From: an uncultured Bacteroidales bacterium
GTDB taxonomy: Bacteria; Bacteroidota; Bacteroidia; Bacteroidales; JAADJA01
Assembly: GCA_964421215.1 (NCBI GenBank)
Contig: CAYQWA010000041.1
Coordinates: 1-40,708 of the forward strand
Reading direction: 5' to 3'
DNA: 40,708 bases
The notes below the pieces were generated by a model, which was given only the letters and a program-made list of their open reading frames with translations, did no database searches and was not told the origin of the DNA. The position numbers and the translations under genes are program-made. This document shows positions 2,239-40,708 of the stretch, in pieces; the stretch's first letter is position 1, and each line of letters starts with the position of its first letter.

Positions 2239-2454
2239 GCGGTAATTCTATTGTTCATTTATTAAGCGGTACAAATATACAAATTACTCAATATGTGTAT
2301 CAATGGATCAATAAATTTGAAATTCTTGTATATATATTAAACACTAGAACAGCTGGATTGTTTGATGAATGCCAGATAGCTAAATAATCATGGCTATTAA
2401 AGAATTAATGGATAGTAAATAAACAGATTTGGTAGCTTTGCAAAAAATATTACA

Positions 2455-3531
2455 ATGAAATTTAAAGTAGGCGACAAAGTAAAATTCCTGAACGAAAGCG
2501 GTGGCGGGATAGTAAGCAAGATCATTACTCCTAAACTTGTTCATGTAACGATTGAGGACGGATTTGAAATTCCTGTTTTAACGGGGGAGTTGTTGCGTAT
2601 TGAAGAAGATGCTCCGCTTGATTCTCCAAAACATATGTTCAATGAGGATTTTAATGTAGAGGTTGATACTTCTACCCAGGAGGTTTATGAGGATGATGGC
2701 AGAAACATTAAATTGATTAATAATCCTTCGAAAGGAACGGTAGATAAAGGAGTTTTTCTGGCCTTTATCCCTGAAGACCAGGAATGGCTAATTACCGGAT
2801 TGATAGATGTATACCTGGTAAACAATACATCATACGATATCCTGTACAATATTTACCTGGCCAATGAAAATGGAGATTTCGAAGCATTCGATTATGGTTC
2901 CGCTTCACCCGATGCTATGATACTGTTGGAATCAGTTGAACGTGAAAAGGTAGAAACCTGGTCGAAAGGAATTGTACAGGTCATGTTTCACGCTGAGCGT
3001 ATGCAGAAAGTGTTGGCTCCTGGCAATTCAATATTTAAGGTAAAATCCACAAGGTTTTACAAGGAAGGCAACTACCGTGAATCAGGCATTCTTAACGGAA
3101 AAGCTATCCTTGTGTCATTGCTTCCTATAGTTGCTCAGACCGTGTTGTCCAACGAGGATTACCCTGATAAAGATGCGAATCAGGTTCCCGAAGTAAAGCC
3201 TTCCGAAGAGGTAAAACCCGAACACATAATTGACAAGCATAAAACCAGTCCGACAGAGGCTGTTGTTGACCTTCATATACAGGAACTGGTCGACAGGCAC
3301 GACCAAATGGAAAATTCCGAAATTATCAAGATACAGATCAATTATTTCACTTCTTGCCTTGAAAATGCCATGGCTAATCGTCTGAAAAAGGTCACTTTTA
3401 TCCATGGAGTAGGAACAGGTGTATTAAAAACTGCAATTAAGGAAATCCTGAAAGATTATCCCAATGTAAGTTACAGGGATGCTTCCATGAAGGATTTTGG
3501 TTATGGAGCAATGGATGTGACACTAAGGTAG
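2455..3531 (+). CDS. Smr (small MutS-related) domain protein with an N-terminal DUF2027-like region.
   Basis: The C-terminus carries Smr motifs (VVDLHIQELV ... TFIHGVGTGVLKTAIKEIL). A TAGCTTTG -7 box lies at 2433-2440, 15 nt upstream of the ATG. Confidence 0.65.
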   Translation: MKFKVGDKVKFLNESGGGIVSKIITPKLVHVTIEDGFEIPVLTGELLRIEEDAPLDSPKHMFNEDFNVEVDTSTQEVYEDDGRNIKLINNPSKGTVDKGVFLAFIPEDQEWLITGLIDVYLVNNTSYDILYNIYLANENGDFEAFDYGSASPDAMILLESVEREKVETWSKGIVQVMFHAERMQKVLAPGNSIFKVKSTRFYKEGNYRESGILNGKAILVSLLPIVAQTVLSNEDYPDKDANQVPEVKPSEEVKPEHIIDKHKTSPTEAVVDLHIQELVDRHDQMENSEIIKIQINYFTSCLENAMANRLKKVTFIHGVGTGVLKTAIKEILKDYPNVSYRDASMKDFGYGAMDVTLR

Positions 3532-6169: not shown

Positions 6170-6245
6170 AACGTCACTTGTGTAAATAGACAAATTAACC
6201 GCAATGATCGCAAAGGTTATCAATGGTCACATAGTATTAAGACTA

Positions 6246-6276: not shown

Positions 6277-6317
6277 GCGAACATTGCGGTTAAAAAACTA
6301 TCAACCAGCATTCTGTC

Positions 6318-6712
6318 GTGGAGCTGGAGGGATTCGAACCCTCGTCCAAACAAGCAGCAAAAGTGCTTTCTACATGCTTAGCTTATTATTGGTTTTCGAA
6401 TACAATCCGGAAAAAAGCACCCAAATTATACCTTATCCCTTTTATCTCATTTTATAACCAGGGTCTTTACAAAACCAGCCTGAAATTATGAGCACCCCGT
6501 AATCAGTCGGAATCAGGCATCTCCTTCTGCGGAATGTCCCGTCACCAGCCCTTGGCCGGCAATAGAGCTAATCTACTAAACTTCGATTAAGCTGCGAGAG
6601 CGTAATTATTTTCGCCAATTAAAAGTTTGAAGATGGTTGATAACGAGCCTTATCTCCAATGCCCGGCATGCTTACAGTTCCACTGACCTTGCTGTCAAAA
6701 CCAGTCAGCCCC
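6318..6712 (-). ncRNA. ssrA: tmRNA (ssrA), about 395 nt, encoding the tag peptide GENNYALAA.
   Basis: The minus-strand 5' end is GGGGCTGACTGGTTTTGACAGC... (rc of 6691-6712). The 3' end is ...GGACGAGGGTTCGAATCCCTCCAGCTCCAC, i.e. T-arm GGTTCGAATCC plus acceptor CAGCTCC-A; the CCA is not fully encoded. The tag reading frame is GGC GAA AAT AAT TAC GCT CTC GCA GCT TAA (rc of 6587-6616) = G-E-N-N-Y-A-L-A-A-stop, the Bacteroidota-type proteolysis tag. Confidence 0.92.
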
Positions 6713-24653: not shown

Positions 24654-27476
24654 TTAGACTTCGCCCAGTTCTGCCAATTTCTCTTTCACATCTTCAGCGG
24701 GTTCATATCCTGGATCTGCATCTGTCCAGATATCATTGGCAATTTGCAAATATTCCCGGGCCTTCTTCTCTTCTCCTGATTCAAGGTAGAGCAGTCCGGT
24801 CTCATAGTTGTTTTTAGGATTAAAGGGATCCAGGTCAAGCGGAATCCGGATATGTTCTTCGGCATCCTTAAATTCTCCGAGTTTTCTGTAGCACCTGGCA
24901 ATCCATCGGTGCGTATCCATGTTTGAAGGTTGCATATCAAGAAATTGTTGATAGTAGGTGATGGCTTCGCTGTAATTCTCTGTTATTTCATTGATTCTGC
25001 CATTGGCATAATGGATATTGGCCAGCAATAGATCTTCTCCAAACCCCTCGATCAATGCTTCTGCCTGTTCAATCTCCTGCATTGCTTTTTCAGTATCTTT
25101 TAATTCAATGTATGCAAACAGGTAGCCAAAGGAAGCAATTTTATCAAGAGGAGATTCGAATTTGTTTTCCATGTCCTCCAGTATTTTAAACGCTCTGTCT
25201 TCCTGCCCGGCCACAATATAGTATCCAATCGTAAAGGCTTGATATACAAGGATGTCTTTGGGGGATTTAAACCTGTTCCACAAATTCATTCTTTTTTCGT
25301 GGTAATCGAGTGCTGTCCGGTTCTGTCCTTTCAATCCATAGAATTGGTGCAATGCATGGAAAACGCTGGAACTGTCTTCAGCAGTTTTGCTTGACGCCAG
25401 AATATTATTAAATTCTATCAGGGCATCTTCAAAATCACCTCGTAAAACTTTTATTCTGGCCAGCCTTATCATGATGGATACTTTACTGGATTCTATCAGC
25501 AAAGCTCTGTCGTAATTTTGCTCAGCTTTATCAAAATCACCCAGCCGAATATATAAATCTCCAATTTCACGGAAGGATTTGAAATCACTGGGAAACTTAT
25601 CAGCATAGAGTTTGTAATAAATAAGAGCAGAATCATAATTGCCGGCCTTTTCATAAAGATCTCCTATGCTTCTTAGGTAATTATATTCTTCCGGATCCAG
25701 CTCAAGAATTTTCTTGTACTGTACAATGGCTTCAGCCGATTGACCTTTGTTGATGTATCTTCCTGCGAGCATTGTTCTTCCTTCTGTATCTTCCGGGTAA
25801 AGTTCCACCCACATTTTAACGACGGCATCCGCTTTATCAGGTTCCTGTTTGACCAGGTAGTAAAAGAATTTTACAAAAAACTGGACGGTTTCAGGTAATT
25901 TGTCCAGGTTTTTTTTATCCATGGCCAGCTCCAGGGTTTCCATGGATTTTTCCGCTTGATTTGAACTGAAATAGAAGTTAGCCAGGGAGAGGTATGCAAT
26001 TGCAAAGCCAGGATCTTCTTCAACGGCCTGGTTTAAATATTCAATTCCTTTAACATAGTCGTTTCTTAAAATTTCGCGATTGGCAAAGGCATACAAACGT
26101 AACGCTATTTCTGAACCGGTAAATATATCAGCAATGGGCAGGTCTCTTGTTTCATCGATATGATATCCCGGTATTTCAACATCGTCTTTAACCTGAATAG
26201 AAATTTCATCGATGAGCTTAAAGATATCTTCTCCAGTAAAATTATTTTCTATCAGCAGTTTAGTTGTTTTTGTATCGTAGAGCTTTGTATTTATTGAATA
26301 TACACCGCCTTCAATGGAAAAATCTCCGCTGAGAAAATAATTCAGATGGTAATATTCTGACAAATTGCTCATTAACGACACTGGTAAACCGATTCCATCT
26401 TCATAACCAGCTTCTTCAAGCTTTTTAAAAAATCGCACCGCCGATTGTGAATTGATATAAATGTCCTGAGATAAATCATATTCAATCATGGTAGGGATGG
26501 AATATTGCAACCAGTCCCAGGTTGAATCACCTGAAATGTTTGTTATGTTAAACAGTGCTAAACTTTTCCTGAATTCACTTTTAACTATGGTTCGTTCAAT
26601 CCGGTCTCCATCTTCATTTTCTACGGTTACACTTTGAGCTGTAGCTCCCAGGCTTTTTCCCTGGAACATTAAAACTACCAACAGTAGGGTCATTGCCGCA
26701 TTGGCAGGTAATCCGAAAAGCTCAACTTTTGTCCATCCTTCCTGTCTGCGTTTGTTATGATAATAAGATAGAAGAAAGACTGCGGGCAACAAAGAAAGCA
26801 AAACTACCCAAGCGAGGTCAACCAGATGGGGTGATAAAAGGTATTCTGAAGATATGGCAGCTACAGCCTGTTTGATGATCCATGCACTTATCAGATAACC
26901 AATAATTACATGAACAACTTTCCGTTTCCAAATATCATTAAAGAACCATTTAGCATCTTTTTTCTGCTGGCCGGAGATACCTTCCACGTATACTTCGAAA
27001 ATTTCTACAGGTTGACTGACTCCTTTTAATTCACGCTTGCCTAGCGAAATGGTGGTTATATCAGATTTGTTCCTTAGCTGGCTTTTTACATCTTCCGAAA
27101 TACAAATACCATTGGCGGGTGCCATGGGCTCAATTCTCGCAGCTGTATTTACTGCTGATCCAAAGACATCTCCATCTTCAAAAATTACATCACCAATATG
27201 GATTCCGGCACGGATCGTTAACTCTTCATCCTTTAGCCGGGTTTGTACACTAATTGCAAATCGGACTGCCTGTACAGCACTGGTGAACATCATTAATAAA
27301 CCGTCACCCAATTCTTTAATCACCTCTCCACCATACGACTCAACCATTGGAAATACGATTTCTCGTTGTTGCTGAAGCAGCTGCATGGTTTTCTGCTCAT
27401 TCTCTTCCATACGCTTTGTATAACCAACGATGTCGGTAAATACAATGGCTGCTAATTTGTGCTTTTTATCAGGCAT
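24654..27476 (-). CDS. Class III adenylate/guanylate cyclase domain - ~3 TM - TPR repeat protein (paralog A, 940 aa).
   Basis: Same architecture as 21680-24496. The cyclase domains are about 80% identical (MPDKKHKLAAIVFTDIVGYTKRMEENEQKTMQLLQ..) and the C-terminal regions are more diverged. This is a tandem duplication. Confidence 0.8.
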   Translation of the reverse strand: MPDKKHKLAAIVFTDIVGYTKRMEENEQKTMQLLQQQREIVFPMVESYGGEVIKELGDGLLMMFTSAVQAVRFAISVQTRLKDEELTIRAGIHIGDVIFEDGDVFGSAVNTAARIEPMAPANGICISEDVKSQLRNKSDITTISLGKRELKGVSQPVEIFEVYVEGISGQQKKDAKWFFNDIWKRKVVHVIIGYLISAWIIKQAVAAISSEYLLSPHLVDLAWVVLLSLLPAVFLLSYYHNKRRQEGWTKVELFGLPANAAMTLLLVVLMFQGKSLGATAQSVTVENEDGDRIERTIVKSEFRKSLALFNITNISGDSTWDWLQYSIPTMIEYDLSQDIYINSQSAVRFFKKLEEAGYEDGIGLPVSLMSNLSEYYHLNYFLSGDFSIEGGVYSINTKLYDTKTTKLLIENNFTGEDIFKLIDEISIQVKDDVEIPGYHIDETRDLPIADIFTGSEIALRLYAFANREILRNDYVKGIEYLNQAVEEDPGFAIAYLSLANFYFSSNQAEKSMETLELAMDKKNLDKLPETVQFFVKFFYYLVKQEPDKADAVVKMWVELYPEDTEGRTMLAGRYINKGQSAEAIVQYKKILELDPEEYNYLRSIGDLYEKAGNYDSALIYYKLYADKFPSDFKSFREIGDLYIRLGDFDKAEQNYDRALLIESSKVSIMIRLARIKVLRGDFEDALIEFNNILASSKTAEDSSSVFHALHQFYGLKGQNRTALDYHEKRMNLWNRFKSPKDILVYQAFTIGYYIVAGQEDRAFKILEDMENKFESPLDKIASFGYLFAYIELKDTEKAMQEIEQAEALIEGFGEDLLLANIHYANGRINEITENYSEAITYYQQFLDMQPSNMDTHRWIARCYRKLGEFKDAEEHIRIPLDLDPFNPKNNYETGLLYLESGEEKKAREYLQIANDIWTDADPGYEPAEDVKEKLAELGEV

Positions 27477-27636: not shown

Positions 27637-28329
27637 TCACTCCATCACAAGGATAAACCCGATTCCATGAATATTGTTTATCTGTACCGATTTATCAAGG
27701 CTTAGGTGTTTCCTTAGTTTGGAAATAAACACGTCGAGACTACGGCTATTGAAGTAACTGTCGCTGCCCCAGACCTCATTCAGGATATCTTCCTTTTTCA
27801 GGACTTTATTTTGATTTTGAATAAAGAATTTCAGTAATTCCACTTCACGGGAAGTAAGGTTACGGCTTTCTTTTGGATGTGACAATGTCATGCTGACGGA
27901 ATTGAAAATGTATTCACCAATGGCATACTCCCCTTTACTTTTTTTCGCATTAATGACCTTTCCACGCTTCAAGAATATTTCAATTTTAAGTGCAAGTTCT
28001 TCAATGCTAAAAGGTTTGGTAATGTAGTCGTCCCCACCTACAGTAAGCCCTTCGATCCTGTCTTCCTTCATCGATTTGGCAGAAAGGAACAAAATTGGTA
28101 TGTGCTCGTCGTTTTCCCTGATCTTTTTTGCAAGGGCAAACCCATCCATCTCCGGTAACATCACATCCAGTATACAAAGGTCAAAAGGATTGTCTTCGAA
28201 AACCGATAAGGCCTCTTTTCCATCTTTGCACAAAACAATTTCATACCCTTTGATCTCAAGGTTATCCTTGGTAACATAACTCAGGTAGGGATCATCTTCT
28301 ACATATAATATTTTTGGTTTACTGCTCAT
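27637..28329 (-). CDS. OmpR-family response regulator transcription factor.
   Basis: REC domain (ILYVEDDPYLS..DLCILDVMLPEMDGFALAKKIR) plus a C-terminal winged-helix domain (..REVELLKFF..LKKEDILNEVWG..). The ATG abuts the stop of the upstream kinase (TAAATG). Confidence 0.85.
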   Translation of the reverse strand: MSSKPKILYVEDDPYLSYVTKDNLEIKGYEIVLCKDGKEALSVFEDNPFDLCILDVMLPEMDGFALAKKIRENDEHIPILFLSAKSMKEDRIEGLTVGGDDYITKPFSIEELALKIEIFLKRGKVINAKKSKGEYAIGEYIFNSVSMTLSHPKESRNLTSREVELLKFFIQNQNKVLKKEDILNEVWGSDSYFNSRSLDVFISKLRKHLSLDKSVQINNIHGIGFILVME

Positions 28330-29589
28330 TTAAACTGGAATTTTAATTGAAAATGTGCTGCCCTTTCCTATCTCACTCGATACAGTTATTTGCCATTTAT
28401 GGCTGTCAATAACGTTTTTTACATAATTTAATCCAATACCGAATCCTTTAACATTATGAATATCACCAGTGGGCACTCGAAAAAATTTATTGAAAATCTT
28501 TTTCAGGTATTGTTTTTCTATGCCAATGGCATTGTCTGACACGGAAAGTACAATGCTATGATTGTCAGTTATGGTTGATATTTCAATTTCAGGTTTTCCG
28601 TTGCAATATTTTATTGCATTATCCAGGAGGTTATACAATACATTGGATATATGATGTTTGTCGCCTACGACTAAAGAATGATTAGCTTCAAGAATTAAAG
28701 AAACGCTTCCTTTATTTTCTTCAACAGAATGCTTAAAACCTGCAGTAACCTCCTGAATCAGTTCATGCAGATCGATCTCCTCCTTTTTCAACTTAAATTT
28801 GTTGGTCTCAATACGGGCAAGTTGTAATACTTTATCAATCTGGTGCTCAAGTCGCTTGTTTTGATCTGAAATTATATTGGCATAATTTATAAACCTTTCG
28901 GGATCTTTAGATATTTCTTCTTCAGAGAGCACTCTGGCTGAAATTCCAATGGTTGAAATGGGAGTTTTAAATTCGTGTGTCATGTTGTTGATGAAGTTCT
29001 TCTGGATCTCAGATAACCGCTTTTGCTTGAGTATGACATAGATGGCATAGCCGAAAAATATCACGGCAGTGAATAATACAAGGGAAGATACAAACCAGAT
29101 GTTCATAGTATTTAAAATGAACAGGGTTTTAGACGGGAAACGAATTCCAAAATAATAGGTGAACTCATCGTATTTCTGGAATTTTTTAGTTTCCTGTTCC
29201 TTTCCATTGGAAGTGCTGATATAATTCCCAAACACCATGGCATCTGTTTCACAATCATATATGGCATACTCATAGTCGATGTCCATGTTCCTGAAATCAA
29301 ACTCTGTTTTCAGGTAATGATCCAGTATGCTGGCATCAATGATGTCGTTAATGTCAACAATAAAATAATTGGACGAGATCTGCCGGACTGGATTTTCATT
29401 GGGTAATTCATGACCATTGAAAGCAAGCACTTTTTCAGCTACATTATAGAGGGCAATCTGTACCCGCTGGGTAAATTCCTGCTCCGTAGTGCTGTAGGTC
29501 CGGTTGATCCAGTACAATTGGAACAATATAATACCTATGATGGATATTGATCCAAGAATAACAGCCAGCCTGATGTGATTGTTTTTCAT
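28330..29589 (-). CDS. Sensor histidine kinase with 2 TM helices and a ~140-aa periplasmic domain.
   Basis: HisKA H-box NNMTHEFKTPISTI. HATPase_c motifs (LYNLLDNAIKY; GFGIGLNYVKNVI; GKGSTFSIKIP). Translationally coupled to the regulator. Confidence 0.85.
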   Translation of the reverse strand: MKNNHIRLAVILGSISIIGIILFQLYWINRTYSTTEQEFTQRVQIALYNVAEKVLAFNGHELPNENPVRQISSNYFIVDINDIIDASILDHYLKTEFDFRNMDIDYEYAIYDCETDAMVFGNYISTSNGKEQETKKFQKYDEFTYYFGIRFPSKTLFILNTMNIWFVSSLVLFTAVIFFGYAIYVILKQKRLSEIQKNFINNMTHEFKTPISTIGISARVLSEEEISKDPERFINYANIISDQNKRLEHQIDKVLQLARIETNKFKLKKEEIDLHELIQEVTAGFKHSVEENKGSVSLILEANHSLVVGDKHHISNVLYNLLDNAIKYCNGKPEIEISTITDNHSIVLSVSDNAIGIEKQYLKKIFNKFFRVPTGDIHNVKGFGIGLNYVKNVIDSHKWQITVSSEIGKGSTFSIKIPV

Positions 29590-31318: not shown

Positions 31319-32038
31319 TTAATGCTTTATAGCAAGCTTTTGTGTTGTGATCATTTTACCATTGGTTGAGATCCTGTAGAAATAAATACCTTCTGAAATA
31401 TCAGCTGTATTCAATTGTACATTGGATTCAACAGTATTTACTTGTCTGATCAGCGATCCGGTAATATCAATTAGCTCGAAAGTATATGCACTGTTGCTTA
31501 ACTTAGCTTCGAACTGAATGTTCACAATGTCATTAGCTGGATTGGGGTAAACCCGGGCCGAAGCAGCAATATTGTCGTTAACACCTACTTCCAGGCCGTT
31601 ATAAACAACAGTTACCATGGTTGAATCATTGGGATTGCTTTCGTCGAAGAAAACGTAAGAAATTGTTGATTCTCCGATATTTCCTCCAGGGTAGTAGTGT
31701 CCTGAAAAGTCAGTGTCATTAGTAGCTCCGCCTTCAATGGTAATTGAATAGGGCGACAGGCTAACATTAGGTGCAATGCAAAGCAACCAGCAGAAAGCAC
31801 TGGAAGCACCAGGTACCATAATCTCTTCATAGCGACGAACAAGTACATCTATGGCGTTGCCACTGGTATTGGTAACATCCATATATACTACAATTTCGTC
31901 TTGTGCGGATGATCCATCCACATAAACTACTTCATTGGGTTCCAATTGATTGCCATCATGGGTAAGTACAAGACTTTGTGCGGAAACAAAGCTTGCAACT
32001 AATACTGCAATAAATGTAAGGAGTAAATTTGTTTTCAT
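31319..32038 (-). CDS. Secreted protein with a T9SS C-terminal sorting domain.
   Basis: Signal peptide (MKTNLLLTFIAVLVASFVSAQ). The C-terminus ..ADISEGIYFYRISTNGKMITTQKLAIKH matches the Por_Secre_tail consensus. Confidence 0.7.
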   Translation of the reverse strand: MKTNLLLTFIAVLVASFVSAQSLVLTHDGNQLEPNEVVYVDGSSAQDEIVVYMDVTNTSGNAIDVLVRRYEEIMVPGASSAFCWLLCIAPNVSLSPYSITIEGGATNDTDFSGHYYPGGNIGESTISYVFFDESNPNDSTMVTVVYNGLEVGVNDNIAASARVYPNPANDIVNIQFEAKLSNSAYTFELIDITGSLIRQVNTVESNVQLNTADISEGIYFYRISTNGKMITTQKLAIKH

Positions 32039-32237: not shown

Positions 32238-33518
32238 ATGGACAAAATGAAATATGTATTCGTTGCTTTAATTTTACTTTTTACATTTACATTCTGCAAT
32301 ACTTCTACTCAGAATAATGAATCGGCCGTTAGTAAAAGCGAACAGAACCAGGATCTACAAGATGAGGAAACTCAGTGGGTGTCTTTGTTTGACGGGAAAA
32401 CCACCAATGGTTGGAAAGGGTTTAAGAAAGACGTAGTACCCTCAGGATGGATCGTTGAGGATGGAAATTTTGTGGCACTTGGAAAAGGTGGTGATCTTGG
32501 TGGTGATGTGATCACTATTGACCAGTTTGAGGATTTTGAGCTTTACCTTGAATGGGCTGTTGAGGAAGGTGGCAATAGTGGAATATTTTTTAATGTGCTA
32601 GAAGAGGGTTATCCCACTGTATATGCTACAGGTCCTGAATACCAGGTGCTCGATGATGTAGGCTACCCCCATGAACTGGAGGAATGGCAGCTGGCAGGGG
32701 CCAATTATGCCATGCACAATGCCGCTGACAAAGTGTTGAAACCTGCTGGAGAGTTTAACTCAAGCAGGATCATTGTCCATGACGGACATGTTCAGCATTG
32801 GCTTAATGGTGATATGGTTGTGGAATATGATTTATGGACGGACGATTGGAAAGAACGTGTGCAAAATTCAAAGTGGAAAGATTTTCCCGGCTATGGATTA
32901 GCGCGTAAAGGCCATATAGGTCTGCAGGATCATGGAGATGTTGTCCGCTTTAGAAACATTAAAGTTCGTGACCTGACCGAAAAGGGTGAAGCAATATTTA
33001 ATGGAAACAATCTGGATGGATGGAAGATACATGGAACCGAAAAATGGTTCGCTGAAAATGGTACATTGGTTTGTGAAAGCGGACCTGATAAAGCTTACGG
33101 TTATCTGGCAACCGAACAAATTTACAAGGACTTTATTCTACGGCTGGAATTTAAGCAGGAATCAAACGGTAACAGTGGAGTCTTTTTCAGGTCTACGCTC
33201 GAAGGAACAAAGATAAGTGGCTGGCAGGTGGAAGTGGCGCCTAAAGGTTATGATTCAGGTGGTATTTATGAATCCTATGGTAGAGGCTGGTTATACCAGA
33301 TCCCTGATGATAGAGAGCATATTCTAAAGGAAGAAGAATGGAATGAATTGATCATTAAAGTGGAGGGCGACAGGGTAATAACCTGGCTGAATGGTGAAAT
33401 GATGACTGACCTGAGTGATGAATTAATCGGACAGGCTCAGGGCAGTGTAGCACTGCAGATCCATGATGGAGGAGATGTTAAAGTGAGGTGGCGGAATATT
33501 TACCTCAAAGAAATATAA
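32238..33518 (+). CDS. Lipoprotein with two tandem DUF1080 (3-keto-disaccharide hydrolase-like, LamG/jelly-roll) domains.
   Basis: Lipoprotein-type signal (..LLFTFTFCNTST). Domain 1 runs from ..WVSLFDGKTTNGWKGFKK.. to GGNSGIFFN. Domain 2 runs from ..IFNGNNLDGWKIHGTEKWFAENGTLV.. to NGNSGVFFRS. Each ends in ..HxGDVxxRWRNIxxKE. Confidence 0.75.
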   Translation: MDKMKYVFVALILLFTFTFCNTSTQNNESAVSKSEQNQDLQDEETQWVSLFDGKTTNGWKGFKKDVVPSGWIVEDGNFVALGKGGDLGGDVITIDQFEDFELYLEWAVEEGGNSGIFFNVLEEGYPTVYATGPEYQVLDDVGYPHELEEWQLAGANYAMHNAADKVLKPAGEFNSSRIIVHDGHVQHWLNGDMVVEYDLWTDDWKERVQNSKWKDFPGYGLARKGHIGLQDHGDVVRFRNIKVRDLTEKGEAIFNGNNLDGWKIHGTEKWFAENGTLVCESGPDKAYGYLATEQIYKDFILRLEFKQESNGNSGVFFRSTLEGTKISGWQVEVAPKGYDSGGIYESYGRGWLYQIPDDREHILKEEEWNELIIKVEGDRVITWLNGEMMTDLSDELIGQAQGSVALQIHDGGDVKVRWRNIYLKEI

Positions 33519-33526
33519 AACTGAAG

Positions 33527-34315
33527 ATGGAAGAATGGGTAGTTGTCCGATCCTTTACCTATCCTCACGAGGCGCACCTTGTAAAAACTAAACTTGAATC
33601 CCGGGGTATCGAAACACAGTTAAAAGATGAATTAACTGTTCAGGTCCATAACTTTTACTCAAACGCAATTGGGGGTGTAAAATTACTCGTTCGTCAATCT
33701 GATGAAAAAGATGCTCTGGAGATCTTAAACGATTCAGGGAATACTGGTAAGGATGAAGCAGCAGGTGATGAAAATTTAAAAAGAAAGAAGTTAAGGTATT
33801 CAAAAATCCTTTATGCTGTTGCCGTTGTCATCCTGTTGGTTGCCATTGGAACTGCAGTTTATTCAATCTTTTTAATTCCTTCACAATCTGAAAAACTAAG
33901 CCTGAATGCATGGTGTTTCGAAGGATTGTATTATAAAGACTGGGAATTTACTCCAAATACAATTGAACCCGACGAAGTAAAGAGCTCAACACAAATACAA
34001 TTTGAATTTGTAAATTCCTGCAGAGAGTATATGGTTTTTTATAAGGAAGGGATCGTGACATTGCCAGGTTTTGATACAGAAAAAATTAAGGCCCGATGGA
34101 AAATGGAGGAAAAGAAACTGTTCATAATTCCCGCAAACGGGGATATGTCGTTGGTTAATGAAGAAAAAGAGGGTATTATAGAAGGCAAGGAGGTGTTAGA
34201 AAATATTTACTATGGGATATACGATGTAAAGTTTCAATCCATATATTTGACACTTGAATCGGAAAAGCGAATTATTTATGGGTCAAGAAAGTACGATAAC
34301 AAATTCAGCTTCTGA
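33527..34315 (+). CDS. DUF2007 (putative signal-transducing) domain - TM - C-terminal domain protein. The start is taken at the ATG at 33527 rather than the GTG at 33488.
   Basis: The N-terminus (EEWVVVRSFTYPHEAHLVKTKLESRGIETQLKDE..GGVKLLVRQSDEKDALEIL) resembles DUF2007. A single TM (ILYAVAVVILLVAIGTAVYSIFLI) is followed by a ~160-aa domain. Confidence 0.55.
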   Translation: MEEWVVVRSFTYPHEAHLVKTKLESRGIETQLKDELTVQVHNFYSNAIGGVKLLVRQSDEKDALEILNDSGNTGKDEAAGDENLKRKKLRYSKILYAVAVVILLVAIGTAVYSIFLIPSQSEKLSLNAWCFEGLYYKDWEFTPNTIEPDEVKSSTQIQFEFVNSCREYMVFYKEGIVTLPGFDTEKIKARWKMEEKKLFIIPANGDMSLVNEEKEGIIEGKEVLENIYYGIYDVKFQSIYLTLESEKRIIYGSRKYDNKFSF

Positions 34316-34481
34316 TGGTAACGGATGGATTTGTCCTGGCTGTAACTCTGATAATGTGGTTATCATGAAAAGGACCGGGCTCATTACTTTGCTGTCCTTA
34401 TTGTTGTTTGCTCTGCCATTACCCATTTTTAAGAAACGATTGTATTGCTTTGACTGCGAATTTGAATGGAAAAAAGATTAA
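34278..34481 (+). CDS. Small zinc-ribbon membrane protein (CPGC ... CFDC, one TM), 67 aa. It would overlap the previous gene's 3' end by 38 nt.
   Basis: Two CxxC pairs flank a hydrophobic helix (LITLLSLLLFALPLPIF). The frame differs from the upstream gene. Its reality is uncertain. Confidence 0.35.
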   Translation: MGQESTITNSASDGNGWICPGCNSDNVVIMKRTGLITLLSLLLFALPLPIFKKRLYCFDCEFEWKKD

Positions 34482-34505
34482 AACAAAATTACAGAAAAGT
34501 AGAGT

Positions 34506-34985
34506 ATGACAAGTAACGGACAAACGATCTCGAATGCGGGGGTAAGATGGATGCTCGTCCTTAGGGTAATTATTGGTTGGCACTTTATGTATGAAGGGCT
34601 GGTGAAATTTACCAATCCGAACTGGTCAAGTGTTGGGTTTCTTTTAGATTCCCAGGGATGGTTCAAAGGTATGTTTGAATCGATGGCTGCAAATCCTAAT
34701 GTGTTGGCTGTAGTTGACTTTATGAACATCTGGGGATTGATCGCCATTGGTTTAGGATTGATACTTGGGCTGTTTACAAGAGTTGCAACCTGGTCTGGAA
34801 TTGTATTACTGGCTATGTATTACCTTTCACATCCACCATTTGTAGGCTTAAAGTACGGAATGCCCATGGAAGGAAGTTATCTGGTAATTAATAAAATACT
34901 AATTGAAATGGTTGCTCTGATTACACTGTTGTTTGTCCCGACAGGAAAGTACATTGGGATCGACCGGTTGATTTGTAAAAAGTAG
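34506..34985 (+). CDS. DoxX family membrane protein.
   Basis: 159 aa with 4 TM helices. DoxX-like N-terminus (..RWMLVLRVIIGWHFMYEGLVKF..). Confidence 0.6.
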   Translation: MTSNGQTISNAGVRWMLVLRVIIGWHFMYEGLVKFTNPNWSSVGFLLDSQGWFKGMFESMAANPNVLAVVDFMNIWGLIAIGLGLILGLFTRVATWSGIVLLAMYYLSHPPFVGLKYGMPMEGSYLVINKILIEMVALITLLFVPTGKYIGIDRLICKK

Positions 34986-34998
34986 GAGTGGAATTTTT

Positions 34999-36549
34999 AT
35001 GGAAGAAAAAACAAACAAAATAGGAAGACGGGATATCATTAAAGGACTTGCAACTGTACCCATAGCAGGTGCTTTATTATATGGGTGGTACAGAAAACGG
35101 AGGTATGAAAACTTGTTTAAAAAGGCCATTCAGGAAGAGGTGAAACTGAACGGCCAAAATCCGGTTTTGAACAGGAGAGTATCCACCGACAAGCAGATCA
35201 GACTTGGGATCATAGGATCAGGTGGCCGGGGAAGGTATTTATTAAAGGCTGCCGGATTTTTAAGGCCAGAGGTAATTGACAGTTTTATTGAACAAAGCAA
35301 AGAAAATAAGTCTGACAAACGATACAAGGAATTCCTTGAACAGGAAGATTTGAATATTGTGATCAATGGTATTTGTGATATTTACGATGAAAATGCCAAA
35401 AGAGGAATTGCAGCCTGTTCTAATATTTGCCGGAATCCGACCAATGGTGAAATGGGAAATCAACCAAAAAGATATACCAATTACAAGGATCTTCTTGCTG
35501 CAGAAGATATTGATGCAGTAATTATTGCTACACCTGACCATTGGCACGGCACCATGACCATCGAAGCAGCTAAAGCAGGAAAGCATGTTTATTGTGAAAA
35601 GCCTTTGACCTGGACTGTTGCTGAAACATATGAAGTAATTAATGCTGTCAAAGAAAATGGCATCGTTTTCCAGCTTGGACATCAAAACAGGCAAACAGAA
35701 AGTTATTTCAAAGCCAAGGAAGCTTACGAGAAAGGGGTGCTGGGAAAGGTAAACCTTGTAGAAGTCACAACCAACAGGAACAGTCCGAATGGGGCCTGGG
35801 TTTATAATATAGAAGAAGGAGCAGGGCCACATAATATTGATTGGCAACAATTCCTCGGACCGGCTCCTTACCATGAGTTTAGCCTTGAACGTTTTTTCCG
35901 CTGGCGATGCTGGTGGGATTACAGCACCGGTTTATCAGGCGATTTGTTTACTCATGAATACGATGCCATGAACCAGATCCTTGATCTTGGTATCCCTGAA
36001 TCTGCAGTCTCCTCTGGAGGAATCTATTTTTACAAAGATGGTAGAACCGTACCCGATGTTTTGCAACAAACGTTTGAATATCCTGACCGAGATCTTACAT
36101 TGATGTATAGTGCATCACTCGCAAGTAATATGCGTCGGGGACGCAGGATTATGGGTCATGATGCCTATATGGAAGTCGGAGGAGATTTAAAGATCTATGC
36201 CGACCAGGGATCTACAAAATATGCAGAAAAAATTGAGGCCGGCCTAATTGATCCCAATCTGCCTATCTATTCATTTACACCGGGAATGAAACAGGTAGAT
36301 GCAATTACTTCTCCAACGGAACAGTATTTTGCAGGAAGGGGATTACTTTATACATACAGAAGCGGTAAAAGGGTAGATACATCACACCTTCATATTAAAG
36401 ACTGGCTTGATTGTATTCGTGAAGGAGGCCAACCCAGCTGTAACATTGATCTGGCATTTGAAGAAGCCATGACCGCACATATGGGTACCATTGCTTACCG
36501 GGAAAACCGGAAAGTATATTGGGATAAGGAGAAGAAAGAGATTGTATAA
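34999..36549 (+). CDS. Gfo/Idh/MocA family oxidoreductase with a Tat-type signal (candidate periplasmic glycoside 3-dehydrogenase).
   Basis: Twin-arginine motif GRRDIIKG plus an h-region. Rossmann motif LGIIGSGGRG. ..DAVIIATPDHWHG.., EKPLTWTV.., ..RWRCWWDYSTG.., typical of the Gfo/Idh/MocA family. Confidence 0.8.
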   Translation: MEEKTNKIGRRDIIKGLATVPIAGALLYGWYRKRRYENLFKKAIQEEVKLNGQNPVLNRRVSTDKQIRLGIIGSGGRGRYLLKAAGFLRPEVIDSFIEQSKENKSDKRYKEFLEQEDLNIVINGICDIYDENAKRGIAACSNICRNPTNGEMGNQPKRYTNYKDLLAAEDIDAVIIATPDHWHGTMTIEAAKAGKHVYCEKPLTWTVAETYEVINAVKENGIVFQLGHQNRQTESYFKAKEAYEKGVLGKVNLVEVTTNRNSPNGAWVYNIEEGAGPHNIDWQQFLGPAPYHEFSLERFFRWRCWWDYSTGLSGDLFTHEYDAMNQILDLGIPESAVSSGGIYFYKDGRTVPDVLQQTFEYPDRDLTLMYSASLASNMRRGRRIMGHDAYMEVGGDLKIYADQGSTKYAEKIEAGLIDPNLPIYSFTPGMKQVDAITSPTEQYFAGRGLLYTYRSGKRVDTSHLHIKDWLDCIREGGQPSCNIDLAFEEAMTAHMGTIAYRENRKVYWDKEKKEIV

Positions 36550-36581
36550 CAATTAATAATATATCTTTTATAGATATCAAT

Positions 36582-36630
36582 TTTTCACGCAAAGAAATCA
36601 AAGAAAATTTGCAAAATAACGCAAAGAAAT
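36582..36630. repeat. Left-flank repeats of the GxxExxY element: TTTCACGCAAAG (36583-36594) is the inverted partner of 37045-37056. ACGCAAAGAAAT is a direct repeat at 36587-36598 and 36619-36630.
   Basis: Read directly from the sequence; see the matching feature at 37011-37057. Confidence 0.6.
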
Positions 36631-36631
36631 A

Positions 36632-37009
36632 ATGACTGAAAACGAGATATCTTATAAGATTATAGGAATCGCTATAGATATCCATAAAAGAATTGGACCT
36701 GGTTTATTGGAATCAGCCTATGAAAATGCATTAGTATACGACCTCAGCGAAGCAGGATTTGAAGTAAAGCAACACCAACAAATGCCGTTTATTTATAAAG
36801 GTGTTCGGCAGGATGTTGGTTACAGAATTGACATAATAGTGAATGATAAAGTTATTATTGAAGTTAAATCTATTGAAGCACTGGCGCCTGTTCATTTTGC
36901 ACAAACACTAACATACTTAAAATTGTCTGAGCTCAAACTGGCGTTACTAATTAATTTTAATAGCAAAGTTCTAAAAGGAAATATTCACAGAATTGTGAAT
37001 AATCTTTAA
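36632..37009 (+). CDS. GxxExxY protein (PD-(D/E)XK nuclease superfamily, TIGR04256-like).
   Basis: The signature GLLESAYENAL (G-x-x-E-x-x-Y) is present, with the typical ~125-aa length and the sequence ISYKIIGIAIDIHKRIGPG... The family is multi-copy in Bacteroidota genomes. Confidence 0.85.
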   Translation: MTENEISYKIIGIAIDIHKRIGPGLLESAYENALVYDLSEAGFEVKQHQQMPFIYKGVRQDVGYRIDIIVNDKVIIEVKSIEALAPVHFAQTLTYLKLSELKLALLINFNSKVLKGNIHRIVNNL

Positions 37010-37010
37010 A

Positions 37011-37057
37011 GCCTTTGCTGTACTTTGCGGTTTATCTTACCGGCCTTTGCGTGAAAT
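37011..37057. repeat. Right-flank repeats of the GxxExxY element: three CTTTGC words (37013-37018, 37024-37029, 37046-37051). CTTTGCGTGAAA (37045-37056) is the exact reverse complement of 36583-36594.
   Basis: A perfect 12-bp inverted repeat brackets the 378-bp gene. Three GCAAAG words upstream mirror the three CTTTGC words downstream. Confidence 0.6.
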
Positions 37058-37135
37058 AAAAAATATAACACTACATTGGCATTGATTGACAATGATAAAA
37101 AATGGATAAATAAACTAAAATATAATTATACATTT

Positions 37136-37984
37136 ATGCTTACCCGAAGAAACTTTGTCAAAGGCATTGCTGCTGCAGGAGCAGCAAGCCTTGTATTACC
37201 TGAACAACTATTTGCTATGCCCACAGATAAAAAAATAGGTATACAACTTTATAGCATTCACAACCTTGTGAACAGTGATCTGAACGGCTCACTGGAAAAA
37301 CTGGCAGGAATAGGATACAATACAATTGAAACAGCTGGATACGGTGACCGGAAGTTTTATGGCCATGCCCCCGAAGCTTTCAGAAGTCTGGCATTAGGAT
37401 TTGGAATAGAACCCTTAAGCAGTCATAGTAATGTAAAGCTTGACAATGCCGAACAAACCATTGATGATGCCGCTGCTGCAGGCATGAAATATGTTGTTAA
37501 ACCATCCATTCCTGAAGATAAACGGCAAACCATTAATGATTATCGTAAACTGGCTGAGGAATTTAACGAGATTGGAAAACTCTGTAAAAAAGCAAAACTA
37601 ACCTTTGCTTACCACAACCATGCATTTGAATTTGCGAAGATCGACGGACAGATCCCCTATGATGTATTGCTCAATAATACTGATCCCGACCTGGTAACCA
37701 TGCAAATGGACACTTACTGGGTATTTTACGGAGGACACAAGCCGGTTGATTATATCAAAAAATACCCCGGTAGGTTTAAACTGTGGCATGTTAAAGACAT
37801 GGCTCCTGGCCTAAAACGAGAAAGTACTGAGATTGGAAGTGGAATGATTGATTTTCCGGCAATATTTAATCTAAGGGAAGAATCCGGAATGGAATATTAT
37901 TTCCTTGAGCAGGAACATTTTTCGATGGATCACTGGGAAAGCCTTGCCATTAGTTTCAAATACATGAACACCTTACCTCAATAG
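37136..37984 (+). CDS. Sugar phosphate isomerase/epimerase (xylose-isomerase-like TIM barrel) with a Tat signal. The start is taken at the internal ATG at 37136 (MLTRRNFVKG..).
   Basis: Twin-arginine motif TRRNFVKGIAAAGAASLVLPEQLFA. TIM-barrel motifs ..GYNTIETAGY.., ..AYHNHAFEF.., ..WHVKD... The ORF track starts 20 codons earlier at 37076. Confidence 0.75.
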   Translation: MLTRRNFVKGIAAAGAASLVLPEQLFAMPTDKKIGIQLYSIHNLVNSDLNGSLEKLAGIGYNTIETAGYGDRKFYGHAPEAFRSLALGFGIEPLSSHSNVKLDNAEQTIDDAAAAGMKYVVKPSIPEDKRQTINDYRKLAEEFNEIGKLCKKAKLTFAYHNHAFEFAKIDGQIPYDVLLNNTDPDLVTMQMDTYWVFYGGHKPVDYIKKYPGRFKLWHVKDMAPGLKRESTEIGSGMIDFPAIFNLREESGMEYYFLEQEHFSMDHWESLAISFKYMNTLPQ

Positions 37985-37986
37985 AC

Positions 37987-39039
37987 ATGAGAAAAAAAAT
38001 CCAAACAGCCATAGTAGGATACGGTTTGTCAGGCCAGGCATTTCATGCACCTTTTCTTCATGTACATGATGGTTTCCAATTAAACAAAGTAGTTGAAAGA
38101 AATCGAACAGATTCCAAAAAGGCTTATCCTTATGTTGAGGTGGTAAAAAATCTGGGTTTTATTCTCGATGATCCTGAAATTGATATGGTGGTAATTTGTA
38201 CGCCCAATGTTTACCACTATGAACAAACAAAGAAATGCCTGGAGGCTGGAAAACATGTAGTTATTGAAAAACCGTTCATGCCAACAGCCAAAGAATGTGA
38301 TGAGATCATCGAGCTTGCAGAATCAAAAGGTTTGCAATTGTTTGTTTACCATAACAGGAGATGGGATGGAGATTTTCAAACCATTCAGAAAGTATACAGG
38401 AGTGGGGTGTTGGGCGATATTCAATACTTTGAAGCTCACTTCGACCGGTGGGCACCTGAGAGAACCAGAGCAACCTGGCGCGATGAGGATAATCCTGGAA
38501 GTGGGGTTTTATTTGACCTTGGTCCTCATTTGATCGACCAGGCATTAACGCTATTTGGTAATCCAGATTATTTGATGGCTGATATTCTGTCCCAGAGAAA
38601 GGGAAGCATGGTGGACGACTATTTTAAGATCAATCTTTTTTATCCGGAAACTGAAGTGGTTTTAACTGCAGGAGTGATGGTAAAGGATCACGAATTGCGC
38701 TATATCATTCATGGTAACGCCGGTTCTTTTATTAAATACGGAATTGATACACAGGAAGCTCAGTTAAGAAAAGGGTCATTACCCACGAAACAGAATTGGG
38801 GACTTGATGATCCGAAAAATTTCGGACTGATCACCCTTGATGACGAAAGTGAAGATTTTGATGGTACCGTTGAAACGCTTCCCGGCAACTACATGGGATT
38901 TTATGAAAATGTGTACAATGTTCTTGTTAATAATGGATCACAAGCTGTTAAGCCAATTGAAGCCCGAAATGTGATCCGCCTGATCGAATTGGCATTTGTA
39001 AGTAACAGAATGGGAGAAAGGGTGAAGTTCGAGGGATAA
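37987..39039 (+). CDS. Gfo/Idh/MocA family oxidoreductase, cytoplasmic (no signal peptide).
   Basis: Rossmann motif IQTAIVGYGLSG. ..MVVICTPNVYHYE.., EKPFMPTAKE... 350 aa. Its start lies 3 nt after the upstream stop. Confidence 0.8.
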   Translation: MRKKIQTAIVGYGLSGQAFHAPFLHVHDGFQLNKVVERNRTDSKKAYPYVEVVKNLGFILDDPEIDMVVICTPNVYHYEQTKKCLEAGKHVVIEKPFMPTAKECDEIIELAESKGLQLFVYHNRRWDGDFQTIQKVYRSGVLGDIQYFEAHFDRWAPERTRATWRDEDNPGSGVLFDLGPHLIDQALTLFGNPDYLMADILSQRKGSMVDDYFKINLFYPETEVVLTAGVMVKDHELRYIIHGNAGSFIKYGIDTQEAQLRKGSLPTKQNWGLDDPKNFGLITLDDESEDFDGTVETLPGNYMGFYENVYNVLVNNGSQAVKPIEARNVIRLIELAFVSNRMGERVKFEG

Positions 39040-39138
39040 ATGTAGTTAATGGTTAATAAATAAATATGTGTGAAGTTGATTAATTAGTAGTGATAGGTAA
39101 GTTGGAGCAAAACATTAAATAAAAATAAATATCCAATC

Positions 39139-40635
39139 ATGAATTCAAGCAAAGAAAATGAAAAATTTACCCTGAGCCGACGTAAGTTTATCGGTAGTGT
39201 AGCGACAGCTGCTGCAGGGTTTACTATCCTTCCAAGTACTGTTATAGGTGGGCTTGGGCATCGTATGCCCAGCGATAAACTGAACATTGCAGGAGTTGGG
39301 GTTGGTGGTGTGGGAGCCACCAATATAAAAAATTGTGCAATGGAAAATATCGTCGCCCTTTGCGATGTTGACTGGCATTATGCAAAAGGCACTTTTGAAA
39401 AGTATCCCGATGCGAAAAAGTACAAGGACTTCAGGAAGATGTTTGAAGAAATGGGCGACAAGATCGATGCTGTTGTGATCGCCACTCCGGACCATACACA
39501 TGCTACTGTAGCGGCTATGGCCATGAAAATGGGTAAACATGTTTATGTTCAAAAACCTTTAACACACTCAGTTTACGAATCAAGAGTCCTTAGGAATCTG
39601 GCCAACGAATATAAGGTGGCCACCCAAATGGGTAACCAGGGAAATACAGGAGAAGGTATTCGTCAAACCTGTGAATGGATCTGGGACGGAGCAATTGGTG
39701 AAGTTGAAGAAGTACATGCCTGGACAAATCGACCAATCTGGCCACAGGGCCTTGAAAGGCCATTGGAAACACCCTCATTACCTCCTACATTGGACTGGGA
39801 TTCATTTATAGGACCAGCACCGTGGCGTCCTTACCATCCAGCTTATACACCATGGAACTGGAGAGCATGGTGGGACTTCGGAACAGGAGCTTTAGGTGAT
39901 ATGGCCTGTCATATTGTAGATCCGGCATTTTGGGCATTGAAACTGGGGCATCCAACAAGTATCCAGGGAAGCTCTTCTCAGGTAAATACTGAAAGTGCTC
40001 CGCTTTCAGAAGTTGTTCATTACGAATTTCCAGATAGAGGTAAGGTTGGAAAAATTAAACTTCCTCCTCTAAAGATGACCTGGTATGATGGTGGTCATAT
40101 GCCTCCCAGACCAGATGAATTGCCAGATGGTCAGATAATGGGCGATCGCAGCGGTGGTGTACTTTTCGTTGGAAGCAAAGGAAAGCTGATGACCGGCTGC
40201 TATGGAAGGAACCCTATTTTATTACCTGGTGAACTGGATGAAGATTATAAACGTCCGGAACCTAGTATCCGGAGGATAGCAGACAACTGGGCCGGCGGAC
40301 ATGAAGGTGACTGGCTCAGAGCATGTAAAGAAAGTCCGGAAAGTCGTGTTGAAACCAGTTCAAACTTCAATTATTCCGGACCACTGAATGAAATGGTTGT
40401 TATGGGTAACCTGGCTGTAAGGCTTCAGGACCTCAAACGAAAACTGTTGTGGGATGGAGAAAACATGAGGATCACAAACATCGGCGATGAAGATGAGATT
40501 CGTGTTGTAACAACTGATGCATTTAACGTTATCGACGGACATCCTCATTTTGATACCCAATATGCAACCATAAAAGCCAAACCGGCTGCCGAAGAGTATA
40601 TTAAACATACGTATAGAAACGGTTGGACATTATAA
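39139..40635 (+). CDS. Gfo/Idh/MocA family oxidoreductase with a strong Tat signal (periplasmic).
   Basis: Twin-arginine motif SRRKFIGSVATAAAGFTILPSTVIG. Rossmann motif LNIAGVGVGGVGA. ..VVIATPDHTHA.., QKPLTHSV.., ..WRAWWDFGTGALGD... 498 aa. Confidence 0.8.
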   Translation: MNSSKENEKFTLSRRKFIGSVATAAAGFTILPSTVIGGLGHRMPSDKLNIAGVGVGGVGATNIKNCAMENIVALCDVDWHYAKGTFEKYPDAKKYKDFRKMFEEMGDKIDAVVIATPDHTHATVAAMAMKMGKHVYVQKPLTHSVYESRVLRNLANEYKVATQMGNQGNTGEGIRQTCEWIWDGAIGEVEEVHAWTNRPIWPQGLERPLETPSLPPTLDWDSFIGPAPWRPYHPAYTPWNWRAWWDFGTGALGDMACHIVDPAFWALKLGHPTSIQGSSSQVNTESAPLSEVVHYEFPDRGKVGKIKLPPLKMTWYDGGHMPPRPDELPDGQIMGDRSGGVLFVGSKGKLMTGCYGRNPILLPGELDEDYKRPEPSIRRIADNWAGGHEGDWLRACKESPESRVETSSNFNYSGPLNEMVVMGNLAVRLQDLKRKLLWDGENMRITNIGDEDEIRVVTTDAFNVIDGHPHFDTQYATIKAKPAAEEYIKHTYRNGWTL

Positions 40636-40708
40636 GATAGAGTTGTTACACAGAGCTTCCTATAGATTTGTCCAATCAGAAAAGATGATTAACTTTCATT
40701 GATTTTCT

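Follow-up and report, generated by a model that had tools for sequence, protein, structure and literature searches.

A predicted BT2158-type glycoside 3-dehydrogenase cluster and its adjoining DoxX-dehydrogenase pair in an uncultured Bacteroidales bacterium

Does the run of genes at the end of a contig from an uncultured Bacteroidales bacterium encode a periplasmic route for the splitting of glycosides, and which of these genes belong to it? The window analysed here is the entire stretch of 40,708 nucleotides (contig CAYQWA010000041.1, assembly GCA_964421215.1). Positions 32238-40635 comprise nine open reading frames (ORFs), all on the + strand, which are referred to as g1 to g9 in their order along the DNA (Table 1). 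A first-pass annotation, made from the letters alone, had described this region as an eight-gene cluster for the degradation of 3-keto-glycosides; it had missed the GxxExxY gene g6, and the region turned out to be composite. Very likely, the genes found here specify a route of glycoside splitting in the periplasm ("oxidise, eliminate, hydrate, reduce") that is homologous to that of B. thetaiotaomicron BT2156-BT2159. The pathway itself is already published and curated (Liu 2021; Liou 2020; Nasseri 2024), and is found here in an environmental Bacteroidales version, the new and hitherto unstudied point being a pair formed by a DoxX protein (g4) and a second dehydrogenase (g5).

The BT2158-type core and the proposed route

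The assignment is carried above all by g9, which exceeds the equivalog cut-off of NF058561, "BT_2158 family glycoside 3-dehydrogenase" (825.8 against 750 bits), its residues 13-498 matching profile positions 1-483 of 487. Like g5 and g8, g9 contains both the N- and the C-terminal domain of Gfo/Idh/MocA oxidoreductases, as found with Pfam and NCBIfam hidden Markov models (HMMs). These models also recovered all the domains named by the first-pass annotation, namely two DUF1080 domains, DUF2007, DoxX, three Gfo/Idh/MocA oxidoreductases and a TIM barrel, at the positions it had assigned to them. The PDB codes 8tcd to 8tdi, which we presume to stem from Nasseri et al., Nature 631:199 (2024), include the structures with which the core proteins align. 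Over 460 residues, g9 aligns with 8tdf (604 bits), and g7 matches 8tcd/8tcs/8tct with 162-167 bits, the match to 8tcd (167 bits) extending across residues 31-279. Judging by the run of entry codes, we take these three to be the BT2156-type enzymes of that study. The first domain of g1 matches 8tda/8tde with 138 bits. Along its entire length, g1 can be aligned with 4jqt, a two-domain structural-genomics protein of 431 aa (209 bits), so that its tandem DUF1080 architecture has a precedent.

From these matches, which uphold the 3-keto-glycoside route that had been proposed, g9 is predicted to be a Tat-exported glycoside 3-dehydrogenase orthologous to BT2158, which would oxidise a C3 hydroxyl group by means of a tightly bound NAD (Tat, twin-arginine translocation). 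In the same way, g7 is a putative 3-keto-glycoside eliminase or lyase of the BT2156 type. The combination of a PF06439 domain with a secretion signal, which characterizes BT2157-type proteins, is present in g1; its orthology to BT2157 itself is nevertheless doubtful, because a single-domain DUF1080 gene located after BT2158 takes that position in relatives. The remaining oxidoreductase, g8, passes the PRK11579 profile NF008607 (336.7 against a cut-off of 330 bits) and matches the YvaA/YhhX-type enzymes 3fhl (298 bits) and 3gfg (290 bits). A GH109-type NAD-glycosidase was considered as well and rejected, the match to PDB 6t2b reaching only 29 bits.

Tat signals had been called on g5, g7 and g9, and two of the three were borne out. 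Applied to isolated N-termini, the Tat-signal HMM TIGR01409 (cut-off 16.7) accepted those of g7 (26.5 bits) and g9 (17.8 bits); the motif of g7 is retained in its orthologues, and the SRRKFIG motif of g9 in at least 30 of its own. The same HMM does not fire on the isolated N-terminus of g5, though the motif (N/G/S)RRD(I/V)(I/L)KGLATVP is retained in 70 of 78 orthologues and the stretch is moderately hydrophobic, as is typical of Tat signals. The possibility that this N-terminus forms a transmembrane anchor was rejected, its hydropathy lying under the usual threshold. A signal peptide is absent from g8, which is predicted to be cytoplasmic, since the protein begins directly with the glycine-rich Rossmann motif at its extreme N-terminus. 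The signal peptide of g1 ends in ...FTFC and is followed by a polar linker, and among the g1 orthologues of at least 380 aa in 21 loci, most have lipobox-like ...SC... ends and a few have ends like those of signal peptidase I substrates. The two DUF1080 domains of g1 are thus as had been described, and its lipoprotein nature is likely from the cysteine-ended signal peptide.

Table 1. Features of the region and of the two-component system upstream of it
Feature	Position	Strand	Description	Evidence
g1	32238-33518	+	426 aa, probable lipoprotein, two tandem DUF1080 (3-keto-disaccharide hydrolase-like) domains	PF06439 284 bits, two stretches
g2	33527-34315	+	262 aa, DUF2007, one transmembrane segment and a further C-terminal domain	PF09413 29 bits; transmembrane segment at residues 99-117
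g3	34278-34481	+	67 aa, CxxC-transmembrane-CxxC "split zinc ribbon" membrane mini-protein, putative partner of g2	without Pfam match
g4	34506-34985	+	159 aa, DoxX/DoxD-family integral membrane protein	PF07681 39 bits; PF04173 (DoxD) 25 bits
g5	34999-36549	+	516 aa, Gfo/Idh/MocA oxidoreductase, twin-arginine N-terminus	PF01408 and PF19051
g6	36632-37009	+	125 aa, GxxExxY / PDDEXK_3	TIGR04256 141 bits
g6 cassette	36583-37056	+	44-nt imperfect inverted repeats (36583-36626 and 37013-37056) bounding the GxxExxY gene	
g7	37136-37984	+	xylose-isomerase-like TIM barrel, BT2156-type, Tat signal	PF01261 (AP_endonuc_2) 57 bits
g8	37987-39039	+	350 aa, YhhX/YvaA (PRK11579)-type Gfo/Idh/MocA oxidoreductase	NF008607 336.7 bits
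g9	39139-40635	+	498 aa, predicted glycoside 3-dehydrogenase, BT2158 orthologue, Tat signal	NF058561 825.8 bits
Response regulator	27637-28329	-	OmpR-type	Pfam
Sensor kinase	28330-29589	-	HisKA	Pfam

In the route that we propose, g9 would be folded with its tightly bound NAD, exported by the Tat system and would oxidise the C3 hydroxyl group of a glycoside. The Tat-exported TIM barrel g7 would then eliminate the aglycone or the leaving sugar from the 3-keto-glycoside, and the 3-keto intermediate would be hydrated or hydrolysed by DUF1080 proteins, namely g1 and a second protein with a single domain, whose gene very probably lies past the window edge. Finally, the 3-keto-hexose would be reduced back, for which g9 in its NADH form could serve or, once the sugar has been taken up, the cytoplasmic g8. 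Upstream of these genes, g4 and the divergent Tat-motif enzyme g5 would constitute a second module. Of this account, the analysis shows that g9 is a homologue and member of the BT_2158 family, that g7 and g1 are homologous to the solved partner enzymes, that export motifs are present and that the gene set is conserved, while the order of the steps, the substrates, co-transcription and the roles of g8, g4 and g5 are what we infer. In B. thetaiotaomicron, purified BT2157 cleaves 3-keto-trehalose, and BT2158 carries a Tat signal and has been proposed to bind its cofactor tightly like Zymomonas Gfo (PMC8121099). Glycosides are also the substrates of homologous clusters found in Caulobacter, Pedobacter and Echinicola (PMC8121099).

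With regard to the BT2156-BT2160 locus, both regions belong to Bacteroidota and carry on a single strand the genes for a 3-dehydrogenase of the BT2158 type (g9 here) and a TIM barrel of the BT2156 type (g7), each exported by Tat, together with one or more secreted DUF1080 proteins akin to BT2157 and another Gfo/Idh/MocA oxidoreductase. In contrast, the SusR-type regulator (BT2160) is not visible here, the extra oxidoreductase g8 is of the YhhX/YvaA type rather than the BT2159 type, the DUF1080 protein within view is a two-domain one encoded upstream, and a module of DoxX and a second Tat-motif dehydrogenase is attached. The order of the genes also differs, being TIM-G8-DH-(DUF1080) here and TIM-DUF1080-DH-BT2159 in the B. 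thetaiotaomicron locus (DH, 3-dehydrogenase; G8, the g8-type oxidoreductase), and the source here is an uncultured Bacteroidales bacterium known from metagenome assemblies only. The BT2156-BT2160 locus, a 3-keto-glycoside / glucosinolate-converting pathway, is described by Liu (2021, Cell Rep; PMC8121099) and reportedly also by Liou (2020, Cell) and Nasseri (2024, Nature).

Two further systems invite comparison. The LacABC/ThuAB glucoside 3-dehydrogenases, known from Caulobacter, Agrobacterium and Sinorhizobium, use a flavin and have no sequence relationship with Gfo/Idh/MocA enzymes. They give the same product, periplasmic 3-keto-disaccharides, but depend on cytochrome c (PMC8121099), and no homologue of them is present here; in Caulobacter, they are clustered with homologues of BT2156-BT2159 (PMC8121099). 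Zymomonas Gfo, like the enzymes predicted here, is a periplasmic, Tat-exported Gfo/Idh/MocA protein with a non-dissociable nicotinamide cofactor (PMC8121099), and it provides a precedent for g5 and g9 being able to work without a periplasmic NAD pool. The similarity amounts to ~30-43 bits, however, and Gfo oxidises glucose at C1 and reduces fructose, without lyase or DUF1080 partners.

Conservation of the gene set, insertions and alternative explanations

A scan with one genome per species yielded 80 loci with g5 orthologues (57-85% identity), whose neighbourhoods were compared by tblastn and ORF clustering. Nearly all of them bear Bacteroidota titles, L020, L037, L058 and L067 being labelled as Chlorobiota, "bacterium" or Chloroflexota metagenome-assembled genomes (MAGs); depth labels, Black Sea ("BS750m") and "Tobar", are attached to several of the related MAGs. 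The genes for the TIM barrel, G8, BT2158 and the single-domain DUF1080 protein are found again in over 20 further genomes of Bacteroidota, partly rearranged: G8 and TIM are swapped in L073/L076/L081/L084, and BT2158-DUF1080 precedes DoxX-G5 in L069. These rearranged orders favour selection on clustering rather than an inherited order, and the co-occurrence of the gene set is not due to chance. G8 is kept within the cluster in 30 loci. All 18 loci that contain BT2158 and are well flanked, by 5 kb or more on either side, also contain a gene for a single-domain DUF1080 lipoprotein, usually directly after BT2158.

This makes it very probable that the cluster continues past position 40708 with a single-domain DUF1080 gene, just beyond the window edge. 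Such a continuation had been anticipated as possible, and the BT2158-DUF1080 order in relatives speaks for it. Nine metagenome contigs from several samples, all with an identical g9, stop 50-140 bp past the g9 stop codon (window 40636-40708; L001 11498-11638), which suggests that a repeat, or a junction that varies between strains, lies directly downstream of g9. Exact-match scans of metagenome contigs with the tail sequence after g9 gave no match, and this tail has no repeat within the window. A second GxxExxY copy as the cause of the assembly break was considered; it is unsupported, the tail being without a repeat in the window.

In three of the related loci (L076, 4224-22126; L084, 4234-19763; L011, 16426-17844), a DoxX-G5-G8-TIM-BT2158-DUF1080 cluster is flanked by a GH29 alpha-L-fucosidase and an S9/esterase-like protein, and in L076 and L084 also by GH20 beta-hexosaminidases. 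These flanks suggest a link to the breakdown of complex host- or algal-type glycans in those relatives, without defining the substrate here.

Three genes of the region stand apart. At the positions of g2, g3 and g6, no counterpart is observed in any of the 80 related loci, where g1 abuts g4 and g5 abuts g7. They are therefore lineage-specific insertions rather than pathway accessories. The first-pass annotation had listed the DUF2007 protein, the zinc-ribbon mini-protein and DoxX together as genes not normally found with this pathway; this applies to the former two, which lie outside it, whereas DoxX is instead a fixed partner of g5. The start of g2, listed as 33488/33527, was placed at the ATG at 33527, and that of g3 at the ATG at 34278, within the end of g2. 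Full-length homologues of g2 with 35-53% identity occur in Bacteroidales and Marinifilum, in unrelated contexts; those in L088 (5028-5961), L089 (535-1468) and L090 (6001-6992) have neighbours that include MauG, DUF4846 and DUF3179 genes, an IS66 element and a group II intron. In each of these three loci, a g3-like ORF of 62-64 aa with the pattern C..C-SDNV-TM-LPLP.FKK-YCFDCE.EW (TM, transmembrane segment) follows the g2 homologue with an overlap. An exhaustive HMMER search of a representative library found 81 relatives of g3, among which are proteins of ~140 aa in which DUF2007 is joined to a module resembling g3 (P0367, P0375, P0385, P0405). Because the pair recurs in unrelated contexts and fusions exist, g3 is a real gene, as had been claimed, and g2-g3 form an independent conserved two-gene module. 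The JGI and ENA gene callers overlooked g3 on this contig.

The third insertion, g6, lies between repeats that carry CGCAAAG/CTTTGCG motifs. Copies of the GxxExxY gene are found in L011 (15140-15514) and L031 (17000-17374) at another site, after g9, with similar CGCA(A/G)AG...CT(T/C)TGCG flanks, and this suggests that g6 is a small mobile cassette. Elsewhere in the window, a gene for transfer-messenger RNA (tmRNA; 6316-6712, - strand) encodes the tag peptide GENNYALAA, and an inverted CGCAAAG...CTTTGCG pair lies beside it at 6209 and 6273.

Several points weigh against the glycoside-splitting route. Among the 23 upstream ORFs scanned with Pfam (3797-32038, the three ORFs at 82-3531 having been left out), no SusC/SusD pair, glycoside hydrolase or SusR-type regulator was found, and the adjacent SusC/SusD genes by which a polysaccharide utilization locus is recognized are thus absent from 3797-32038. 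No NCBIfam equivalog fires for g1 or g7, and the BT2157-like gene expected after g9 lies outside the visible DNA. Reduction had been proposed as the last step, and an oxidoreductase that might carry it out is indeed present; g8 is nevertheless, by its scores, not an orthologue of BT2159. On the profile of the BT_2159 family disaccharide 3-dehydrogenase (NF058563, cut-off 650), g8 scores 41.2, g9 25 and g5 17.9 bits, and g8 could be regarded as a 3-keto-hexose reductase only by analogy. Co-transcription is deduced from the common strand and the short gaps (from g1 to g9, successively 8 nt, an overlap, 24, 13, 82, 126, 2 and 99 nt), gene arrangement being its sole basis, and the operon may be interrupted at the g6 cassette, on the two sides of which the gaps measure 82 and 126 nt. 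Sigma-70 sites are no commoner than in shuffled sequences, and the Bacteroidetes TAnnTTTG motif is absent from the intergenic gaps. These gaps contain no terminator-like hairpin, every + strand site being located inside a gene, and an Rfam scan returned the tmRNA only and no riboswitch ahead of the cluster. With respect to co-transcription, the promoter and terminator results are neutral.

The lack of evidence from the promoter and terminator scans would fit genes that are mere neighbours, belonging to separate transcription units and to no common pathway, with a signature that arises from families abundant in Bacteroidota. Such an explanation also accommodates the composite nature of the region, with its insertions g2-g3 and g6, and the 14 of 35 well-flanked loci in which the DoxX-g5 pair stands alone. 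We nonetheless consider it unlikely in view of the joint presence of BT2158 and the single-domain DUF1080 gene in 18 of 18 well-flanked BT2158 loci, where TIM and G8 are usually present too, and of a clustering that survives changes of order; in B. thetaiotaomicron, moreover, the homologous genes share common phenotypes and are co-induced (PMC8121099). Even less probable, to the point of being hardly credible, is a set for the catabolism of inositol or cyclitols, composed of iolG-like dehydrogenases and an iolE-like TIM-barrel dehydratase. The profile myo_inos_iolG does give 66-90 bits on g5, g8 and g9, and myo_inos_iolE 54 bits on g7, but these scores are far under the cut-offs of TIGR04380 (355 bits) and TIGR04379 (290 bits), and g9 passes the BT_2158 equivalog instead. 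Tat export and DUF1080 proteins are ill-suited to a cytoplasmic inositol catabolism, and no IolB, IolC, IolD or IolJ-type annotation was found among the Pfam-scanned proteins of the window.

The DoxX-g5 pair

Wherever the DNA extends for 5 kb or more on both sides (35 loci), a DoxX gene is located directly upstream of the g5 orthologue, and the gap between them has a median of 9 nt over 72 ORF pairs; L035 is the one real exception to this adjacency. While the pair stays together, its surroundings change. It is found without any other pathway gene nearby in 14 of the 35, as in a Prolixibacteraceae example in which it stands between serC-serA-DUF1015-like genes and an arginyl-tRNA-synthetase-like gene (neighbours assigned from translations, without HMMs). 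In other loci it is accompanied by nothing but BT2158 and DUF1080, the order of which varies (L068, L069, L075, L083), by the TIM barrel only (L045, L067, L072, L085) or by a tandem DUF1080 gene only (L014, L051), and in some by the full pathway set; a tandem DUF1080 gene usually precedes it. DoxX (g4) is consequently a fixed partner of g5, and the two form a separable second module. The titles of these loci range from Lentimicrobiaceae, Prolixibacteraceae and Flavobacteriaceae MAGs to Parabacteroides, Bacteroides and Dysgonomonas, and the pair is also present in loci that are not titled as MAGs, namely Parabacteroides sp. PF5-9, Bacteroides sp. 519 and Bacteroidales bacterium 6E.

As for the proteins themselves, the match of g4 to the DoxD profile spans 147 of 167 positions. 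Against the equivalog for the DoxD subunit of thiosulfate:quinone oxidoreductase (NF041179, cut-off 300), g4 scores 21.6 bits, and no DoxA-like gene was found in the cluster; g4 is thus assigned, by its PF07681 score of 39 bits, to the broad DoxX family only. In comparison with Acidianus DoxDA, g4 likewise matches DoxX/DoxD profiles and is a small polytopic membrane protein encoded beside a catalytic partner exposed on, or exported to, the outer side of the membrane, but DoxA is missing here, and the place of a thiosulfate-oxidising subunit is taken by an NAD(P)-type Gfo/Idh/MocA enzyme.

On NF058561, g5 reaches 127.9 bits over residues 155-365 only, which is below the cut-off of 750, and a 211-aa core containing the WWD..TG..GD...H region is 34% identical between g5 and g9. 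Thus g5 is a distant paralogue of g9 and BT2158 that falls outside the BT_2158 family. The EKP and DxxxH motifs are invariant among g5 orthologues, and the annotation of the family is limited to "Gfo/Idh/MocA family oxidoreductase". The AlphaFold2 model of g5 (mean pLDDT, the per-residue confidence measure, 77) has the Gfo/Idh/MocA fold, and its nearest solved structures in Foldseek are levoglucosan dehydrogenase, DgpA, RgNanOx, YjhC, NAD-dependent glycoside hydrolases and KanD2. Several of these sugar-dehydrogenase structures presumably act at C3. The model is compatible with a sugar dehydrogenase, without discriminating the substrate.

For the function of g4 and g5 as a whole, we infer that the pair may constitute a second periplasmic sugar dehydrogenase with a membrane partner. 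Extending the glycoside-splitting route rather than replacing it, DoxX and g5 might together form a membrane-associated sugar (glycoside):quinone oxidoreductase, a suggestion that we put forward tentatively, as possible rather than probable. The Tat-exported, NAD(P)-bound g5 would oxidise a periplasmic sugar, and its cofactor would be re-oxidised by a menaquinone held by DoxX, as by DoxD in thiosulfate:quinone oxidoreductase; the outcome would be a net oxidation with energy conservation or, alternatively, the rescue of dehydrogenases stranded in their NADH form. This is in line with the constant adjacency of the two genes, the persistence of the pair in a changing neighbourhood, its occurrence from Lentimicrobiaceae to Dysgonomonas and the extent of the DoxD profile match. 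It also agrees with the label "thiosulfate dehydrogenase [quinone] large subunit" that JGI gives to g4 orthologues, and the electron acceptor of BT2158 was left open by Liu et al. (PMC8121099). On the other hand, contact between DoxX and g5 and the binding of a quinone are without direct evidence, the proposal resting on gene linkage and a weak similarity to DoxD, and a transfer from NADH to a quinone without a flavin would be unusual. The only moderately hydrophobic N-terminus of g5 offers no strong membrane anchor, and the Tat HMM is silent on it. No fusion of DoxX with a Gfo/Idh/MocA protein occurs among the matches listed, the search for DoxX homologues having returned only close orthologues (62-86% identity), and a search of a literature library gave nothing relevant that links DoxX with Gfo/Idh/MocA or periplasmic dehydrogenases. 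Similarly tentative, or slightly less probable, is the broader proposal that DoxX-g5 could be a widespread, undescribed two-gene unit of Bacteroidota that wires an NAD-loaded periplasmic sugar dehydrogenase to the quinone pool, with the tandem DUF1080 lipoprotein as its dedicated partner.

Upstream genes and significance of the locus

A two-component system (27637-29589) lies 2.6 kb upstream of the cluster. The first-pass annotation had reported neither a SusC/SusD pair, nor a glycoside hydrolase, nor a regulator; the first two statements hold for the scanned stretch, while this system provides a candidate regulator, albeit on weak evidence. The two genes are syntenic with the cluster in its closest relatives (L008, L011, L018, L021, L024, L029, L031) but not in more distant ones. 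Immediately upstream of g1, in the opposite orientation (31319-32038, - strand), is a gene for a 239-aa protein with a type IX secretion system C-terminal sorting domain, which is also located divergently upstream of g1 in nine relatives (30-57% identity), being next to the cluster in the closest ones only. The segment 29867-32038 further holds a 259-aa protein with a weak match to an outer membrane beta-barrel (PF13568, 21.7 bits, cut-off 27) and a 199-aa probable lipoprotein. Farther upstream, two adjacent paralogues of ~940 aa (21680-24496 and 24654-27476, both on the - strand) have an N-terminal adenylate/guanylate cyclase domain followed by long arrays of tetratricopeptide repeats.

Taken at the strength given above, the locus extends the "non-Koshland" glycoside splitting of BT2156-BT2159 from gut Bacteroides to uncultured Bacteroidales, some of whose relatives bear water-column depth labels, and the comparison of loci separates the genes that belong to the system from passengers. 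How periplasmic NAD-bound dehydrogenases stay oxidised was left open by the original work, and this question becomes testable through the presence of DoxX beside a paralogue of the 3-dehydrogenase. If the proposed link to the quinone pool is true, DoxX-g5 would offer the electrons released by the periplasmic chemistry of 3-keto-glycosides in anaerobes the exit that has been missing.

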